Assembly: GCF_044324785.1 (NCBI RefSeq) | Contig: NZ_CP172127.1 | Strand: one strand, 5' to 3' | Length of the DNA stretch: 64,000 nt | Origin: Escherichia coli | GTDB taxonomy: Bacteria > Pseudomonadota > Gammaproteobacteria > Enterobacterales > Enterobacteriaceae | Shown here: piece after piece, positions 13,048 to 39,302 of the stretch | How positions within the stretch are numbered: position 1 is the first letter of the stretch | Layout: each line of letters opens with the position of its first letter | Program-made: the position numbers and the translations under genes | Notes under the pieces: model-generated | Databases searched by the model: none | What the model was told of the DNA's origin: nothing | The model's input: the letters and a program-made list of their open reading frames with translations, nothing else

Positions 13048-13896
13048 TTATTGCCGAACCAGTCTTGTGGTCGATGGGACAAAATCGCTATTACTGCGCC
13101 ACGGGTTAATGTCCAGACCGCCACGACGGGTATAACGTGCGTAAACGCTCAATTTCTCTGGCTGGCAGAAGCGTAACAGGTCATTAAAGATGCGTTCCAC
13201 GCACTGTTCGTGGAACTCGTTGTGATGGCGGAAAGAGACCAGGTAACGCAGCAGTTTTTCTCTGTCAATTTGGCGTCCACGATACTGAATTTGGATCGAA
13301 CCCCAATCTGGTTGATGGGTGATCAGGCAGTTTGATTTCAGCAGGTGGCTGACAAGCGTCTCTTCCACTACTTTTTCACCACTGGTGGCATTCTCCAGAT
13401 AGTCAGTAGTGAATTCATAGTTATCGATAGTGATATCCTGGTCATCAATGCAAGTGCCATTGAAATGACCTATCGGCTGGCCTTCCAGTTCATCAAGACG
13501 ATATAACGCCACGCTAACATTACCCTGAGCGCAAGTGCTTAAGTCGCGCTCCAGCGTCTGGCGCACCTCATCCCAGTTATTAAAACGCGTCTGGTTAAAA
13601 CTGTTGAGATAGAGCTTAAAACTCTTCGACTCAATCAGATTTGCGCTGGTGTAATCAAGTTCAACATGACCGACGGCGACCTGCGGCAAACCTTTCGCAT
13701 TCAGCCAGGAAAGTTCATACAGCGTCCAGATATCCGTACCGTGAAAAGGCAGGTTATCCGCTTTCAGATCCAGCGGATCGCGATTCAGACTACGCGGAAC
13801 GCCTTGTAGCAGGCTGGCGTCATAGGTATCCCGGTAATCGGTTGATTTTCCAAGAGTCAGGCCCGCAAGTGCCTGATGGTTTGCATAAGAAGACAT
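13048..13896 (-). CDS. queF: NADPH-dependent 7-cyano-7-deazaguanine (preQ0) reductase
   Basis: 282-aa [43 protein letters not shown]...; QueF/YqcD. Confidence 0.92.
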
Positions 13897-13963
13897 GTTT
13901 CACCGTCATAAACCAGATAAACTAAACGACAAGTGTATCTGGTTTAAGTGAAGAGAGAAATTA

Positions 13964-14509
13964 GTGGACGATTTGACCGCACAAGCCCTGAAAGATTTTA
14001 CTGCACGCTACTGCGATGCGTGGCATGAAGAGCATAAAAGCTGGCCGTTGAGTGAGGAACTGTACGGCGTTCCTTCACCGTGCATTATTTCAACCACCGA
14101 AGATGCCGTATACTGGCAACCCCAGCCGTTTACCGGGGAACAAAATGTAAACGCGGTTGAACGCGCTTTTGATCTTGTGATACAACCCACAATTCATACC
14201 TTTTATACGACTCAGTTTGCCGGGGATATGCACGCGCAGTTTGGCGATATCAAACTGACATTGCTGCAAACCTGGAGTGAAGACGACTTCCGTCGGGTGC
14301 AGGAAAATCTGATTGGTCATCTGGTGACTCAGAAAAGGCTAAAATTGCCGCCCACGCTATTTATCGCGACGCTGGAAGAAGAGTTAGAGGTCATCTCGGT
14401 GTGTAATCTCTCCGGTGAAGTGTGTAAAGAGACGCTGGGAACACGTAAACGGGCGCATTTAGCCTCAAATCTTGCGGAATTCCTTAATCAACTTAAGCCT
14501 CTTCTGTAA
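13964..14509 (+). CDS. syd: SecY-interacting protein Syd
   Basis: 181-aa [38 protein letters not shown]... Confidence 0.92.
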
Positions 14510-14727
14510 TCCAAATACCCCATCTGGTTGTGAGAGATCTCTTACAGACTCTGTAGGAGATCGCCAGGAAATAAGCGAATACTTAAAAAGATAAGAATCG
14601 TTATTTTCATTTAAAATCAATATATTGCTTGTTAATTCTTAACTTTCATATGAAATTTTCCTTAAGGCATTGTCTGTAAGCGCCTTGTAAGACTTCGCGA
14701 AAAAGACGATTCTATCTTCGTCGACAG

Positions 14728-15086
14728 GGAGTCAGACAACGAAGTGAACATCAGGATGATGACACTTCTGAAGGACACACCAAGATGGTGTTTCAGGGAA
14801 AGGCTTCTGGATGAAGCGAAGAGGATGACGCAGGACGCGTTAAAGGACACCTCCAGGATGGAGAATGAGAACCAGTCAGGATGATTCGGTGGGTCAGGAA
14901 GGCCAGGGACACTTCAGGATGAAGTATCACATCGGGGTGGTGTGAGCAGGAAGCAATAGTTCAGGATGAACGATTGGCCGCAAGGCCAGAGGAAAAGTTG
15001 TCAAGGATGAGCAGGGAGCAACAAAAGTAGCTGGAATGCTGCGAAACGAACCGGGAGCACTGTGAATACAGTGCTCCCTTTTTTTA
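14728..15086 (+). ncRNA. csrB: CsrB small RNA (CsrA-sequestering sRNA)
   Basis: About 360-nt non-coding stretch between syd and yqcC densely packed with CAGGA(U)G / AGGA motifs (caggatga, aaggacac, caggatgg, tcaggatg, caaggatg ...), ending in the GC hairpin gggagcactgtgaatacagtgctccc + T8; sequence matches K-12 CsrB as recalled. Confidence 0.9.
15053..15086 (+). terminator. Rho-independent terminator of csrB
   Basis: Perfect 10-bp stem gggagcactg/cagtgctccc with a 6-nt loop followed by TTTTTTTT. Confidence 0.9.
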
Positions 15087-15130
15087 TTCCTGCTATCCTT
15101 CGCGGCAGTTTTTCTTATTGAGGTTGCTTT

Positions 15131-15460
15131 ATGACCACTCATGACCGCGTTCGTCTCCAGTTGCAGGCGCTTGAAGCGTTACTGCGTGAACATCAGCACT
15201 GGCGAAACGATGAACCCCAGCCGCATCAATTTAATAGTACCCAACCGTTCTTTATGGACACCATGGAACCACTGGAGTGGTTGCAGTGGGTGCTGATCCC
15301 GCGAATGCACGATTTGTTAGATAACAACCAGCCATTACCGGGCGCTTTTGCCGTTGCTCCCTATTATGAAATGGCGCTGGCGACGGACCACCCGCAACGC
15401 GCGCTTATTCTGGCTGAGCTGGAAAAACTGGATGCTCTTTTTGCGGATGATGCGAGCTAA
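15131..15460 (+). CDS. yqcC: Conserved protein YqcC (DUF446)
   Basis: 109-aa ORF MTTHDRVRLQLQALEALLREHQHWRNDEPQ...; stop overlaps the truC start (TAATG). Confidence 0.85.
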   Translation: MTTHDRVRLQLQALEALLREHQHWRNDEPQPHQFNSTQPFFMDTMEPLEWLQWVLIPRMHDLLDNNQPLPGAFAVAPYYEMALATDHPQRALILAELEKLDALFADDAS

Positions 15461-16242
15461 TGCTGGAAATACTCTATCAGGATGAATGGCTGGTTGCGGT
15501 AAATAAACCCTCCGGCTGGCTGGTTCACCGCAGCTGGCTGGATCGCGACGAGAAAGTAGTGGTCATGCAAACCGTGCGTGACCAGATAGGCCAGCATGTG
15601 TTTACTGCTCATCGTCTGGACCGACCAACTTCTGGTGTGTTGTTGATGGGATTATCCAGCGAGGCCGGACGGCTGCTGGCACAACAGTTTGAACAGCACC
15701 AAATCCAGAAACGTTACCATGCGATCGTGCGCGGCTGGTTGATGGAAGAAGCAGTTCTGGATTATCCACTGGTGGAAGAACTGGACAAAATCGCTGATAA
15801 ATTTGCCCGCGAAGATAAAGGCCCACAGCCAGCAGTGACGCATTATCGCGGTCTGGCGACCGTAGAAATGCCGGTAGCGACCGGACGTTACCCGACCACG
15901 CGCTACGGCCTGGTGGAACTGGAGCCGAAAACCGGACGCAAGCACCAGCTCCGTCGCCATCTTGCCCATTTGCGGCACCCGATTATTGGCGACAGCAAAC
16001 ATGGTGATTTACGCCAGAATCGCAGCGGTGCTGAACATTTTGGCCTTCAGCGGTTAATGCTACATGCCAGTCAGTTGTCATTGACGCATCCTTTTACTGG
16101 CGAGCCGTTGACTATTCACGCGGGCCTGGACGGCACCTGGATGCAGGCGTTATCACAATTTGGCTGGCGGGGTCTGCTTCCTGAAAATGAAAGGGTTGAG
16201 TTCAGTGCTCCATCGGGTCAGGATGGAGAGATAAGTTCCTAA
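15460..16242 (+). CDS. truC: tRNA pseudouridine(65) synthase
   Basis: 260-aa [28 protein letters not shown]...; RluA-family pseudouridine synthase motifs. Confidence 0.92.
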
Positions 16243-16259
16243 TCCAGGGAGAAAACGGT

Positions 16260-16709
16260 ATGGCGGAAATTGGTATTTTTGTCGGCACTATGTACGGAAA
16301 TTCGCTGTTAGTGGCGGAAGAAGCGGAAGCAATTCTGACCGCGCAGGGCCACAAAGCAACGGTATTTGAAGATCCTGAATTAAGCGACTGGCTGCCCTAT
16401 CAGGATAAGTATGTTCTGGTGGTTACGTCCACGACCGGGCAGGGCGACCTTCCTGATAGCATTGTGCCGCTCTTTCAGGGAATTAAAGATACCCTGGGCT
16501 TCCAGCCGAATCTGCGTTATGGCGTGATTGCGCTCGGCGACAGCAGTTATGTGAATTTCTGCAATGGCGGCAAACAGTTCGATGCCTTGTTGCAGGAACA
16601 GAGCGCTCAGCGGGTTGGCGAAATGCTGTTGATTGACGCCAGTGAGAACCCGGAACCGGAAACGGAATCAAATCCGTGGGTCGAACATTGGGGCACGCTG
16701 TTGTCCTGA
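16260..16709 (+). CDS. yqcA: Flavodoxin-like protein
   Basis: 149-aa [41 protein letters not shown]... with flavodoxin fold signature (T-S-T-T-G-x-G-D). Confidence 0.88.
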
Positions 16710-17143
16710 TATGTTCAGCGAGCGGTAAATGCCGTTTTAGCGGTGCTGAATCGAATCTTTTCAGGCAAATGCCAGTAAAAACTGCTTCATAGCGCGGATT
16801 TTTACTGGCGTTTGCCTGGAGTCAAGCGATCCATTTCATACTCTTCTTTATTTCTTCGTTTTAACCCTTCCTTTCTTGTTTTTGTTTTCATTTCCGTGAA
16901 GTGGATTCCACCGTCCAGGGCTAATGCCAAAATCGGGCCTCATTGAACGCATTAATGTTGTGTTGTTGCACGGTGAGCCGCTATGGCGCGCTTTTTATAC
17001 TGCTATTGCCAGATATAAACACGCGCCGTATTCGGCGAACGACCTATAAAAACGGCAAAAAACACCCTACGTCACCTCTGATTTCCTGGCGATGTCGCAG
17101 TCCAGAGTGAGCGTGGCTAACGCGAATTTTCAGGAGTGCAACA

Positions 17144-18496
17144 ATGAGTTCTTTAAGTCAGGCTGCGAGCAGTGTGGAAAAACGCACAAATGCTCGTTAC
17201 TGGATAGTGGTGATGTTGTTTATCGTCACATCCTTCAACTACGGCGACCGCGCTACGCTTTCTATTGCCGGTTCGGAAATGGCCAAAGATATCGGCCTTG
17301 ATCCCGTGGGAATGGGCTATGTGTTCTCTGCTTTCTCATGGGCTTATGTTATCGGACAGATCCCTGGTGGTTGGTTGCTGGATCGTTTTGGTTCAAAACG
17401 CGTCTACTTCTGGTCGATCTTTATCTGGTCGATGTTTACCTTGCTGCAAGGCTTCGTCGATATTTTTAGTGGATTCGGCATTATCGTTGCCCTGTTTACG
17501 CTGCGCTTCCTGGTCGGGCTTGCTGAAGCGCCATCTTTCCCCGGCAACAGTCGCATTGTTGCGGCCTGGTTTCCGGCGCAGGAAAGGGGAACGGCGGTGT
17601 CGATTTTTAACTCCGCCCAATACTTCGCAACGGTGATCTTCGCGCCGATTATGGGCTGGCTGACGCATGAAGTGGGCTGGTCACACGTCTTCTTCTTTAT
17701 GGGCGGTCTGGGCATTGTCATCAGCTTTTTCTGGCTGAAAGTCATCCACGAGCCAAATCAACATCCGGGTGTAAATCAGAAAGAGCTGGAGTACATCGCC
17801 GCGGGTGGCGCGCTGATCAATATGGATCAGCAAAACACCAAAGTTAAAGTGCCGTTCAGCGTGAAGTGGGGGCAGATCAAACAGCTGCTCGGGTCACGGA
17901 TGATGATCGGCGTTTATATCGGTCAGTACTGTATCAACGCCCTGACTTACTTTTTCATTACCTGGTTTCCGGTTTATCTGGTGCAGGCGCGTGGGATGTC
18001 GATCCTGAAAGCGGGCTTTGTGGCTTCCGTTCCGGCGGTTTGCGGTTTTATCGGCGGTGTGCTGGGTGGGATTATTTCCGACTGGCTGATGCGCCGCACG
18101 GGATCGCTGAACATTGCGCGTAAAACACCGATCGTAATGGGCATGTTGCTGTCGATGGTGATGGTGTTCTGCAACTACGTCAACGTTGAGTGGATGATCA
18201 TCGGCTTTATGGCGCTGGCCTTCTTCGGTAAGGGCATCGGGGCGCTGGGTTGGGCAGTAATGGCAGATACCGCGCCAAAAGAGATCAGCGGTCTTTCCGG
18301 TGGCCTGTTCAACATGTTCGGTAACATTTCTGGCATCGTCACGCCAATCGCAATTGGTTATATCGTTGGCACGACTGGCTCGTTTAATGGGGCGCTGATT
18401 TATGTTGGTGTTCATGCCTTAATCGCGGTACTGAGCTACCTGGTGCTGGTGGGCGATATCAAGCGTATCGAGTTGAAACCTGTTGCGGGGCAATAA
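17144..18496 (+). CDS. gudP: Glucarate/galactarate MFS transporter
   Basis: 450-aa polytopic [43 protein letters not shown]...; first gene of gudPXD. Confidence 0.92.
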
Positions 18497-18497
18497 G

Positions 18498-19838
18498 ATG
18501 GCGACACAATCCAGTCCTGTTATTACTGATATGAAAGTCATTCCGGTGGCCGGGCATGACAGCATGTTGCTTAATATTGGTGGTGCACATAACGCATATT
18601 TCACCCGCAATATTGTGGTACTCACCGATAACGCCGGGCATACCGGTATTGGTGAAGCGCCGGGCGGAGAGGTGATTTATCAGACGCTTGTCGATGCTAT
18701 TCCGATGGTGCTGGGCCAGGAAGTTGCGCGCCTGAATAAAGTGGTTCAGCAGGTGCATAAAGGTAATCAGGCAGCCGATTTTGATACCTTCGGCAAAGGT
18801 GCCTGGACCTTTGAATTGCGCGTTAACGCCGTGGCGGCGCTGGAAGCCGCCTTGCTTGACCTGCTAGGTAAGGCGCTGAATGTTCCGGTCTGCGAACTGT
18901 TAGGGCCAGGCAAGCAACGCGATGCTATTACCGTCCTCGGTTATCTGTTTTATATCGGTGATCGGACCAAAACCGATCTTCCTTATCTGGAAAATACGCC
19001 GGGCAACCATGAGTGGTATCAGTTGCGCCATCAGAAAGCGATGAACAGCGAAGCCGTTGTGCGTCTGGCGGAAGCCTCACAGGATCGCTACGGCTTTAAA
19101 GATTTCAAACTTAAGGGCGGCGTGTTACCTGGCGAGCAAGAAATCGACACTGTTCGTGCATTGAAGAAACGCTTCCCGGATGCGCGGATTACCGTTGATC
19201 CCAACGGTGCATGGCTGCTTGATGAAGCCATTTCTCTGTGCAAAGGGCTGAATGATGTTCTTACCTATGCCGAAGATCCATGCGGAGCAGAACAGGGGTT
19301 CTCCGGACGTGAAGTGATGGCGGAGTTTCGGCGGGCGACCGGCTTGCCCGTCGCGACTAATATGATCGCCACCAACTGGCGCGAAATGGGCCATGCGGTA
19401 ATGCTCAATGTGGTGGATATTCCACTTGCCGATCCGCATTTCTGGACGCTTTCCGGTGCAGTCCGCGTGGCGCAGCTTTGCGACGATTGGGGGCTGACCT
19501 GGGGCTGCCATTCCAATAACCACTTTGATATCTCTCTGGCGATGTTTACCCATGTGGGTGCGGCGGCACCGGGTAATCCTACCGCTATCGATACCCACTG
19601 GATTTGGCAGGAGGGCGATTGTCGCCTGACCAAAAATCCGCTGGAGATTAAAAACGGAAAAATTGCCGTTCCTGATGCGCCCGGTCTGGGCGTGGAACTG
19701 GACTGGGAGCAGGTACAAAAGGCGCATGAGGCCTATAAACGTCTGCCTGGCGGTGCGCGTAACGACGCGGGCCCGATGCAGTACCTGATCCCCGGCTGGA
19801 CCTTTGACCGTAAACGTCCCGTTTTCGGCCGTCATTGA
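18498..19838 (+). CDS. gudX: Glucarate dehydratase-related protein (enolase superfamily)
   Basis: ORF 18483-19838; start placed at the ATG giving [32 protein letters not shown]... (446 aa); paralogue of the following gene. Confidence 0.9.
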
Positions 19839-30650: not shown

Positions 30651-31964
<1,314 letters not shown>

Positions 31965-31984
31965 GTCTGACTTTATCTGATTTA

Positions 31985-32016
31985 AAAATGCCAGCCTTCG
32001 GGCTGGCATTTTTTAT
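31985..32016. terminator. Bidirectional intrinsic terminator between convergent eno and ygcG
   Basis: aaaaatgccagcc-ttcg-ggctggcatttttt: 9-bp GC-rich stem flanked by an A-run and a T-run. Confidence 0.85.
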
Positions 32017-38198: not shown

Positions 38199-38516
38199 AT
38201 CGTATTCCCATTTGTAATAGACAAAAAAAAGAGAAAAGTAAGCCGCCCTTTCAGGTGGATTACTTTTCTCAGGTCTCTAGTAATTGCAATAAGAAATAAC
38301 ATGGAAAGCAGTGGTGTTGTGTGAGAGTAATCACGCTTCTGCTTTTTAAAATTATTTGACAATTCGAATATCACACTGTGATTACGATCACATTAGCGAT
38401 TATGCCCTTATGATAAAAATTATCTCCAGTTACCAGAGATAATGAGAAAGGTAACTTCCCTCTCGCGGGGGAAGTTACCTTTCTTTTTTTTTGCCTTACG
38501 GAAATTGGAGCTAACT

Positions 38517-39302
38517 ATGTCAATCGAATCTCTCAATGCGTTCTCAATGGATTTTTTCTCCCTGAAAGGTAAAACCGCTATTGTTACCGGCGGGAATAGC
38601 GGTTTAGGCCAGGCATTTGCCATGGCGCTGGCCAAAGCAGGCGCAAATATCTTTATTCCAAGCTTCGTTAAAGATAACGGCGAAACAAAGGAAATGATTG
38701 AAAAACAGGGTGTTGAAGTTGACTTTATGCAGGTGGATATCACCGCAAAAGGCGCGCCGCAGAAGATAATCGCCGCCTGTTGCGAACGTTTCGGTACCGT
38801 CGATATTCTGGTTAACAATGCCGGTATTTGTAAGCTGAATAAGGTGCTGGACTTCGGTCGTGCCGACTGGGATCCAATGATTGATGTGAACCTGACCGCC
38901 GCATTCGAGTTAAGCTATGAAGCTGCAAAAATTATGATCCCGCAGAAAAGCGGTAAAATCATTAATATCTGTTCATTATTCTCTTACTTAGGTGGACAAT
39001 GGTCACCTGCATATTCTGCCACTAAACATGCTCTTGCCGGATTCACCAAAGCTTATTGTGATGAACTAGGTCAATATAATATTCAGGTAAATGGTATTGC
39101 CCCTGGCTATTATGCAACAGATATTACGCTGGCGACACGCAGTAATCCAGAAACCAATCAGCGCGTTCTTGATCATATTCCGGCAAACCGTTGGGGCGAT
39201 ACTCAGGATTTAATGGGCGCAGCCGTATTCCTCGCAAGTCCGGCTTCAAATTATGTTAACGGGCATTTATTAGTGGTCGATGGCGGTTATTTAGTGCGCT
39301 AA
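38517..39302 (+). CDS. ygcW: Short-chain dehydrogenase/reductase (SDR)
   Basis: ORF 38442-39302; start placed at the ATG giving MSIESLNAFSMDFFSLKGKTAIVTGGNSGLGQAFA... (Rossmann TGGxSGxG motif), 261 aa. Confidence 0.85.
   Translation: MSIESLNAFSMDFFSLKGKTAIVTGGNSGLGQAFAMALAKAGANIFIPSFVKDNGETKEMIEKQGVEVDFMQVDITAKGAPQKIIAACCERFGTVDILVNNAGICKLNKVLDFGRADWDPMIDVNLTAAFELSYEAAKIMIPQKSGKIINICSLFSYLGGQWSPAYSATKHALAGFTKAYCDELGQYNIQVNGIAPGYYATDITLATRSNPETNQRVLDHIPANRWGDTQDLMGAAVFLASPASNYVNGHLLVVDGGYLVR

Follow-up and report, generated by a model that had tools for sequence, protein, structure and literature searches.

In Escherichia coli, Rho-dependent 3′ ends have been described as stable stem-loops that lack a U-rich tail and are followed by sequence with more C than G, with exonucleases trimming the RNA back to the stem-loop and with terminator types switching easily through loss of U content (Dar & Sorek 2018, NAR, PMC6061677). 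The hairpin described here, formed by a long inverted repeat between yqcA and gudP, resembles these protective stem-loops in lying shortly after a stop codon, in being U-less on its 3′ side and in having an unstructured tract with more C than G next to it. It differs in scale and composition: whereas the described structures are typically terminator-sized, the stem here is much longer (20–27 bp, −37 kcal/mol) and holds an A-run and a U-run inside it.

Bidirectional-type intrinsic terminators combine an A-tract, a G+C stem-loop and a U-tract. The ancestral module from which the hairpin appears to descend is built alike, from A4–5, a compensating stem and T5–7, and also lies between two genes. 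By contrast, the inner G+C stem of the E. coli element is down to four weak pairs, its U-run is sequestered and nothing U-rich follows; further, the two genes flanking the yqcA/gudP site have the same orientation, with no convergent partner. REP and BIME elements share with the present hairpin the character of an imperfect intergenic palindrome after a gene end, and a REP-like sequence (GCCGGGT...ACCCGGC) occupies the equivalent place after yqcA in Enterobacter and the Citrobacter freundii group. Unlike REP elements, the hairpin is single-copy in E. coli, does not contain the REP consensus and carries no repeat annotation in K-12.

In lambda sib retroregulation by RNase III, a long helix forms only when transcription reads past a U-run. 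The hairpin here, in a comparison drawn from general background, shares with sib the nested registers and an outer helix of RNase III length, but its inner register is too weak to terminate. Finally, the CpxR box is a tandem repeat, GTAAA-N5-GTAAA; the two candidate boxes at this locus are inverted with respect to each other, ~36 bp apart and far upstream.

A long inverted repeat between yqcA and gudP

The window, a 64,000-nt stretch of the E. coli chromosome, has the gene order syd, csrB, yqcC, truC, yqcA, gudP, gudX, gudD. Its + strand corresponds to the minus strand of K-12, whose coordinates are obtained as 2939244 minus the window coordinate. A first-pass annotation had reported an inverted repeat of two 20-nt arms, complementary at 19 of 20 positions around a 17-nt loop, ~50 nt after the yqcA stop and ~330 nt before gudP. 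Rereading the sequence returned exactly this geometry, with a left (5′) arm, CAGGCAAATGCCAGTAAAAA, at 16762–16781 and a right (3′) arm, TTTTTACTGGCGTTTGCCTG, at 16799–16818 (+ strand). By measurement, the repeat begins 52 nt after the stop codon of the flavodoxin gene yqcA (16260–16709, + strand), in whose 3′ UTR the hairpin would fall, and ends 325 nt before the ATG of gudP (17144–18496, + strand), which has the same orientation.

Both arms are composite. Within the left arm, GCCAGTAAAAA (16771–16781) is the older portion of the stem, and the outer 8 nt (16762–16769) are paired only in Escherichia, as judged from per-helix pairing in 16 species; the arm closes with an A5 run (16777–16781), which the alignment identifies as the ancestral A-tract 5′ of the variable centre. 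The 17-nt loop (16782–16798) is the hypervariable centre of the element. Its interior is predicted to form a weak 4-bp inner stem, C16782–G16797, U16783·G16796, G16784–C16795 and C16785–G16794, with A16798 bulged. The right arm opens with T5 (16799–16803), the ancestral U-tract, which is base-paired in E. coli, and closes with TTTGCCTG (16811–16818), an Escherichia-specific extension that stands in place of the ancestral TTTTCATA. The sole position that is not a Watson–Crick pair, T16770/G16810, reads as a U·G wobble in + strand RNA and as an A·C mismatch in − strand RNA.

A 101-nt RNA carrying the repeat folds at −46.3 kcal/mol on the + strand (z = −6.6; none of 200 shuffles was as stable) and at −38.3 kcal/mol on the − strand. 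The 57-nt hairpin alone folds at −36.8 kcal/mol, with a helix of 23–27 pairs that includes one U·G pair and one bulged A. Nowhere else in the 64-kb window is there an inverted repeat with 20-nt arms, at most one mismatch and a loop of 3–40 nt, and by our own arithmetic such a repeat is expected by chance ~1e-4 times per window. The repeat is real, non-random and conserved.

Occurrence and variation within E. coli

The element occurs in single copy in 5,425 of 5,426 complete E. coli genomes (median of 1 place per genome). Matches in a plasmid collection were confined to three E. coli records of 4.8–4.9 Mb, which are chromosome-sized and carry the same locus. A dispersed repeat or a mobile-element relic is ruled out by the single copy in E. 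coli and by absence from phages. The K-12 hairpin is identical to that in the window, and the K-12 annotation has neither a repeat feature nor any other annotation at this place. A permissive Rfam 15 scan (E ≤ 1) of positions 13500–19000, together with eight other genera, returned only CsrB and no family at the hairpin.

Variation is concentrated outside the arms. K-12 and three of four sampled variant strains have the arms of the window, the other single-nucleotide differences falling in the loop or the flanks. In the divergent strain L083 there are two differences in the arms: a C-to-U change that keeps its pair as G·U, and one that breaks the outermost pair. Across the sampled E. coli and six Escherichia lineages hardly any change is seen at the 40 arm positions, in contrast to the variable loop and flanks, and two Escherichia loop haplotypes that differ at ~10 of 17 positions are identical at all 40 arm nucleotides. 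Inversion of the loop between Escherichia lineages found no support, direct and inverted alignments being about equally poor.

Comparative anatomy across Enterobacteriaceae

We compared 80 yqcA loci, one genome per species; in 70 of them gudP lies downstream of yqcA within the fetched flank. Long spacers are found in Escherichia, part of Citrobacter, Salmonella, Silvania, Kosakonia, Phytobacter, Superficieibacter, Raoultella and Atlantibacter, and carry a series of blocks at nearly fixed spacing: TCAAGCGA, then after 64–65 nt TTTCATTTCCGTGA, then after 77 nt TTGTTGCACGGTGAG, followed by TATACT. Short spacers (Enterobacter, the C. freundii group and others) have the promoter-proximal blocks only, and yqcA is followed there by either a REP-like element or a plain terminator. 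The E. coli hairpin marks the upstream boundary of this long layout, with its end 3 nt short of the TCAAGCGA block. This block, GTCAAGCGATCCATTTCATACTC (16821–16843, + strand), opens the series of fixed-spacing blocks upstream of gudP; its core TCAAGCGA occurs in 14 of 14 aligned Escherichia, Citrobacter and Salmonella spacers, and most of the long-type spacers have it exactly or with one change. Another conserved block, at 16918–16932, resembles the left arm.

At the place of the hairpin other genera have the motif GGGCAAATGCC.GTAAAA, of which GTAAAA is retained in most genera, and the A-run columns of the alignment are invariant or nearly so. There follows a centre of ~17–19 nt that is unrelated between lineages and usually self-complementary (CCTTTCA/TGAAAGG, CCCTTTC/GAAAGGG, CCGC/GCGG, ACCGCT/AGTGGT and CCCTGC/GCAGGG in different lineages). 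In 18 of 21 species a T-run of 4–7 follows at a fixed position (−22 to −25 counted from TCAAGCGA), and ACnGGC and GTTTTCA often come after it. The palindrome singled out in the first pass belongs, when followed across the Enterobacteriaceae, to this old module. Its long-hairpin form is limited to Escherichia, part of Citrobacter, Superficieibacter, Salmonella (where it is weak) and one Kosakonia.

A stable hairpin lies within 150 nt of the yqcA stop in all 81 sequences folded, be it a proximal terminator, a REP-like element or the present hairpin. E. coli has no yqcA-proximal terminator, and the present hairpin is both its only strong structure and the most stable of all 81 when 60-nt structures are compared. 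The proximal terminator CCCTCCC...GGGAGGG, which follows yqcA in Citrobacter and Salmonella, is missing from Escherichia. Species with a good yqcA-proximal terminator keep the second hairpin too, which is therefore more than simply 'the' terminator of yqcA. Presence of the module goes with that of the gudP upstream region, not with yqcA, and the interval from it to the conserved blocks downstream hardly varies (57–59 nt); this tie to the gudP region suggests, from the alignment, an architecture at the level of DNA. Kosakonia, Phytobacter and Silvania conserve the primary sequence of the left arm, and of the block 5′ of it, with neither a complementary right arm nor a significant hairpin, and pairing therefore cannot be the sole constraint. 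A single consensus RNA structure for the whole module was rejected: across 23 species RNAalifold gives only 2 invariant pairs.

Evidence for base pairing and for the strand

Pairing was counted in a 16-sequence alignment (Escherichia, Citrobacter, Salmonella and Superficieibacter) with the E. coli structure as the reference. Standard pairs fill 82% of pair cells, against 33–51% when the 3′ partners are slid by 1–3 columns. Pair 16–48 is A:U in seven sequences, C:G in four and U:A in two, pair 12–52 is U·G in some sequences and U–A in others, and both partners have changed at three of the four inner pairs. In total, 18 cells show two-sided changes, compared with 11.3 ± 2.3 in shuffles, a count that was reached in 4 of 500. 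Salmonella has a deletion of 10 nt between the arms.

The self-complementary spacer, the parallel changes in the two half-sites and the Salmonella deletion fit a hairpin and would not be expected of a protein-binding palindrome. The binding site for a dimeric regulator that the first-pass annotation had offered as one option is disfavoured by the same features, and keeps some plausibility through the conservation of the left arm without a partner. Hairpin formation accounts for the inverted repeat as such; this can be reconciled with a DNA-level reading, in which the left arm may be an older protein site. As to the strand, G·U cells outnumber A·C cells by 36 to 18 overall and by 14 to 2 within Escherichia, which favours the + strand; for the core alone, the + strand is the more stable in only 14 of 23 species. 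We take the + strand as the probable working strand, on a strand signal that is weak.

Terminator-like ancestry and changes in Escherichia

Judged from the alignment, the ancestral layout of A-run, variable stem-loop and T5–7 is that of a two-way-type intrinsic terminator. To rank registers we used a d'Aubenton-Carafa-type formula, supplied with modern energies, whose scores order registers relative to each other only. On this terminator-like scale the inner hairpin with its T-run in Citrobacter, Raoultella and Superficieibacter ranks at least as high as those species' own yqcA-proximal terminators, and all three E. coli registers score far below these homologues. The E. coli inner stem next to T5 comprises four weak pairs (−2.8 kcal/mol); the full stem combines high stability (−36.8 kcal/mol) with an A/U-rich middle portion.

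The Escherichia form differs from the widespread one in the right flank, where TTTTCATAGGG has become TTTGCCTGGAG through four substitutions in seven nucleotides. Three of the four pair with the ancestral left flank CAGGCA, and it is through this cluster of changes that a helix of 20–27 bp has come to enclose the old U-run. The first-pass annotation had overlooked this T5 (16799–16803), hidden inside the 3′ arm, along with the probable descent of the element from a terminator-like module kept elsewhere. Its remark that the stem has no clean U-tract after it and is not a textbook terminator holds: the sequence that comes after the full stem is GAGTCAAG, given as GAGTCAAGCGA where a U-tract was looked for, GTTTG comes after the middle of the stem, GTTTGCCT directly follows the middle register, and no E. 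coli register is terminator-like. The U-rich tract of ~7–9 nt that an intrinsic terminator has right after its stem is absent from the hairpin, and a consensus scan of 16200–17300 gave no intrinsic terminator on the + strand. On these modelled registers, the E. coli hairpin itself most likely no longer terminates transcription.

A candidate protective stem-loop at the end of yqcA

Immediately downstream of the stem, positions 16819–16896 (+ strand) form an unstructured, pyrimidine-rich and G-poor tract, a candidate rut-like Rho-loading region for rightward transcripts on the basis of composition and folding. It holds 19 C and 8 G (C/G = 2.38, in the top 0.9% of 78-nt windows) and 16 YC dimers, and 60-nt windows starting from 16820–16840 fold at 0 to −2.6 kcal/mol. 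The equivalent spacer of 56–57 nt in 31 species has on average 32% C and 13% G. The locus thus has the two features of the class described by Dar and Sorek, a stable stem-loop after the gene without a U-rich tail and unstructured C-over-G sequence just downstream, and because of this match we favour a mechanism of the Rho-dependent 3′-end kind.

Our preferred reading, held tentatively and at slightly less than even confidence, is that the repeat forms, where yqcA gives way to gudP, an RNA 3′ stem-loop of terminator descent, by which the yqcA transcript is ended or protected and gudPXD is shielded from read-through. It builds on the structure, conservation, covariation, terminator-like ancestry and downstream composition that we observe at the locus; that transcripts end at the hairpin and that Rho acts there, we infer by analogy. 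The stem-loop would form on rightward transcripts, in the yqcC–truC–yqcA direction, ~50 nt into the yqcA 3′ UTR. It would have originated as an old two-way-type intrinsic terminator (A-run, short G+C stem-loop, U-run) bordering the gudP control region on its upstream side; within the genus Escherichia, decay of the inner stem and outward growth of the stem would then have placed the U-run within a 23–27-bp helix, leaving no free U-tract. Rho would release RNA polymerase in the C-rich, G-poor, unstructured stretch just downstream, 3′ exonucleases would trim the RNA back to the hairpin, and the hairpin would serve both as protection of the yqcA mRNA and as a boundary against read-through into gudPXD.

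Of the options offered in the first pass, an RNA stability element is the best supported, its role at a transcript 3′ end being a prediction from the modelled structure. Several observations run against a yqcA 3′ stem-loop: the module follows the gudP upstream region, a second hairpin stands beside good proximal terminators in other species, and the strand signal is weak. The accessible supplementary tables of 3′-end and full-length transcript studies yielded no yqcA 3′ ends, Rho-dependence or RNase data, and the accessible literature nothing usable on published 3′ ends, start sites or small RNAs at the yqcA/gudP locus.

Published putative CpxR boxes and the gudP promoter

Both arms are listed as putative gudP CpxR boxes in Table S4 of Zhao et al. 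2022 (PMC9600279), with PSSM scores of 11.12 and 9.68. Putative box 1, GCAAAtgccaGTAAA (16765–16779, + strand), is given at position −365, and putative box 2, TTTACtggcgTTTGC in + strand letters (16801–16815, − strand), at position −329. The same places emerge from a pattern match, in which GCAAATGCCAGTAAA (16765–16779, +) and GCAAACGCCAGTAAA (16801–15, −) match the consensus GTAAA-N5-GTAAA, each arm agreeing at 9 of 10 consensus positions (GCAAA-N5-GTAAA). In that study gudP mRNA was at 0.42x in cpxA24 and at 1.91x in a cpxA deletion; its PSSM screen returned more than 10,000 sites, and the promoter set used for gel shifts did not include gudP (Zhao et al. 2022). Deletion of cpxR raises gudP by log2 1.5 in LB (Choudhary 2020); in the supplements to that work gudP figures only as a differentially expressed gene and is missing from the operons that have a CpxR ChIP-exo peak.

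The likely −10 of gudP is TATACT at 16995–17000, and the TGTTGCACGGTGAG block adjoins the gudP promoter. The only element common to the gud and gar control regions is GCGCT..TTATACT, located at this likely −10.

Alternative explanations

Instead of an RNA structure, the arms could be paired inverted sites on DNA for a regulator of gudPXD, either CpxR (GYAAA-N5-GTAAA) or a factor recognising GGCWWWYGCCA, a reading that we regard as doubtful and yet deserving of serious weight. The arms are already in print as putative CpxR boxes and gudP mRNA is altered in cpx mutants; GYAAANNNNNGTAAA occurs in the 64 kb just at the two arm sites; and GGCWWWYGCCA occurs three times in the yqcA–gudP spacer (in both arms and at 16919–16929) and is absent from the other non-coding DNA of the window. 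The near-constant spacing from the arms to the other conserved blocks and the conservation of the left arm in distant genera that have no pairing partner point the same way. Against CpxR stand the missing ChIP-exo peak at gudP and the sheer number of sites in the PSSM screen. Moreover, garL, garP and garD, which have no palindrome, rise more than gudP does in the cpxR deletion, and equally in baeR and zraR deletions, so the effect on gudP expression is probably indirect. The CpxR consensus is common to the family, yet the first pentamer of the box is unconserved beyond Escherichia and a few Citrobacter (GCATT, GCGTT and GCATA are found instead); the locus thus shows neither a Cpx-specific expression response nor conserved boxes. 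An arm-to-arm distance that varies (by the 10 nt lost in Salmonella), a self-complementary spacer and covarying arms are predicted by a hairpin and not by a protein site, and ~190–245 nt upstream of the likely gudP −10 is an unusual place for one. The same remoteness from the promoter counts against an operator for CdaR, the activator of glucarate and galactarate genes. The gudPXD operon is CdaR-activated. Only position upstream of a CdaR-activated operon commends this regulator, named as a candidate in the first pass, and we find the idea very improbable. The garP–garD spacer of K-12, the control region of the other CdaR-dependent operons, has no similar palindrome, arm sequence or GGCWWWYGCCA, and thus no motif in common with the repeat; and the whole hairpin module is absent from Enterobacter, the C. 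freundii group, Lelliottia and others that retain gudP with its conserved proximal promoter blocks.

The element might also have no present function in E. coli, being a decayed terminator whose palindrome was kept or lengthened by template switching or arm-to-arm conversion. We consider such a relic unlikely. The weakness of the inner stem (merely −2.8 kcal/mol) and the want of any terminator-like register speak for it, the four substitutions of the Escherichia extension fall within 7 nt on one side, with three appearing to copy the complement of the ancestral left flank, and covariation of the arms can come from concerted evolution. The loop has been replaced wholesale between Escherichia lineages, and in two genomes without the gud operon the breakpoint lies at the hairpin centre. 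A functionless remnant, however, fits poorly with arms that stay nearly invariant in E. coli and six Escherichia lineages while loop and flanks vary, with a U·G wobble that has been kept rather than 'corrected', and with the presence of the hairpin in all but one of the 5,426 genomes; in addition, a simple template switch would give TGCCTGAAAA, whereas TGCCTGGAG is observed. Quite unlikely, in our estimate, is a different role in RNA, either in the destabilisation of read-through transcripts through RNase III cleavage at the hairpin, in the manner of lambda sib, or as the terminator of a small unannotated transcript. A near-continuous helix of ~20 bp suffices for RNase III, and the modelled helix of 23–27 bp, with one wobble and one bulge, is a cleavage candidate by length; it could equally be a target for destabilisation instead of protection. 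Its two nested registers, the inner stem with U5 and the full stem, would suit the sib comparison, in which the inner U5 end would be the protected form. As for a small transcript, Citrobacter, Salmonella, Kosakonia and Phytobacter have ~85 nt of conserved sequence between the yqcA-proximal terminator and the hairpin with its T-run, the layout of an sRNA gene, and this stretch holds a small covarying hairpin with the loop TGCCAGT. Yet neither E. coli nor the eight other genera have an Rfam family there, the spacer contains no convincing conserved promoter, most of the conserved stretch upstream is gone from E. coli, and a U-run of 4–6 is short for an Hfq-type sRNA; a literature search found no paper tying gudT or yqcA to an sRNA, and no expression data. 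Two other candidates were rejected: a − strand promoter, TTGACT (16825–16820) and AAAAAT (16803–16798), has a −10 that is unconserved in other genera although TTGAC falls within an invariant block, and small open reading frames across the spacer (42 aa on the − strand, 44 aa on the + strand) traverse an inter-block segment of hypervariable sequence that shifts by ±1 nt from genus to genus. More speculative, and to our minds improbable, is a two-register switch in the 3′ UTR, alternating between a short hairpin stopped at U5 and a full helix that is cut by RNase III or bound by protein, which would couple yqcA mRNA and gudPXD read-through to envelope stress or carbon status. The proteins of such a switch, if it is true, would be CpxR or a factor recognising GGCWWWYGCCA on DNA. 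A kindred and likewise improbable reading takes the element as a natural record of palindrome growth by template switching.

Implications

For regulon prediction the locus carries a caution, in that both gudP 'CpxR boxes' are the two arms of one RNA-type hairpin. A protective 3′ stem-loop at the end of yqcA would not surprise a specialist; it would be an ordinary, previously unannotated example of a described class. If this preferred reading is true, the hairpin would add to the cases of Rho-terminated operons whose ends E. coli marks and protects and would be, in practical terms, a natural insulator of the inducible glucarate operon from a housekeeping operon. The unusually clear series from an apparent canonical terminator in Citrobacter and its relatives to a U-less long hairpin in Escherichia would then illustrate, within one family, the proposed switch between terminator types.

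Conserved blocks and a leader hairpin upstream of gudP

Between the big hairpin, the long inverted repeat that lies downstream of yqcA, and the start of gudP, comparison of around 30 species reveals a set of conserved blocks on the + strand (window 16821-17012). The blocks, GTCAAGCGAYC..TTTCAYACTC, TTTCATTTCCGTGAAGT..TTCCA, GGGCTWWTGCCA.AA, TGTGTTGTTGCACGGTGAG and GCTTTTTATACT, keep a nearly fixed spacing across these species, with several of them invariant, and are separated by sequence that is constant in length yet hypervariable. The first block, through AAGCGA-N6-TCACA, is a candidate CRP-like site.

Further downstream, a conserved hairpin is found in the 5′ leader of gudP (17073-17110, + strand), roughly 35-70 nt upstream of the ATG. 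It takes the form CACCTCTGA...(T/C)CAGAGTGA in E. coli and CATTCTGA...(A/T)CAGAATG in most other genera, with CATCCTGT/ACAGGATG and CTTCCTGA/TCAGGATG as less common forms; across 64 of 71 loci, these variants amount to compensatory changes at two positions of the stem. A consensus terminator scan of 16200-17300 returned a single match, a terminator-like site on the − strand (CGCCGAATACGGCG then CGTGTTTATA, 17024-17037), which falls within the likely gudP leader, a short distance downstream of the putative gudP −10 element.

Other structured elements in the window

The CsrB small RNA lies at 14729-15088 (+ strand), where it matches its Rfam family over the full length with 375 bits, and occupies the same place in all eight other genera scanned. 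A perfect inverted repeat at 31984-32013 (AAAAATGCCAGC / GCTGGCATTTTT; 12-nt arms, 6-nt loop) closes the frame 30651-31964; with an A-run before it and a T-run after it, it resembles an intrinsic terminator of the two-way type. Among the inverted repeats of the window, AGAAAGGTAACTTCCC / GGGAAGTTACCTTTCT at 38444-38485 ranks second in strength, with perfect 16-nt arms and an 8-nt loop, and is located where a long open frame (38397-39302) begins.

Arms, loop and breakpoints of the big hairpin

The 434-nt yqcA-gudP spacer holds three copies of the motif GGCWWWYGCCA (16764-16774, 16806-16816 on the − strand and 16919-16929), two of which are the arms of the big hairpin. The six other copies in the window all lie within long open reading frames, and none was found in the garP-garD spacer, the control region of other CdaR-regulated operons. 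In Citrobacter and Salmonella (loci L007, L008 and L021-L024), a small hairpin sits about 35-60 nt after the yqcA stop, with the yqcA-proximal terminator on one side and the big hairpin on the other. Its stem covaries (TTGCTT/AAGCAA, CTGCTTA/TAAGCAG and CTTGC/GCAAG) around a conserved loop, TGCCAG(T), whose sequence is also contained in the big hairpin's arms (TGCCAGTAAAA). This stretch of the spacer has been lost from E. coli.

The Escherichia loops of the big hairpin (16782-16798; loci L004 and L005) fall into two sharply distinct haplotypes, of CTGCTTCATAGCGCGGA versus CTYGCAAATRWGACGGT type, with about 10 differences over the 17 loop positions and none over the 40 arm positions that flank them. 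Inversion of the loop does not account for the difference. In two Citrobacter loci in which gudP does not adjoin yqcA (L011 and L019), the left half of the conserved module that encloses the hairpin is kept up to the hairpin centre, beyond which divergence is complete; the gud operon was thus lost through a deletion or replacement whose breakpoint falls within the palindrome.
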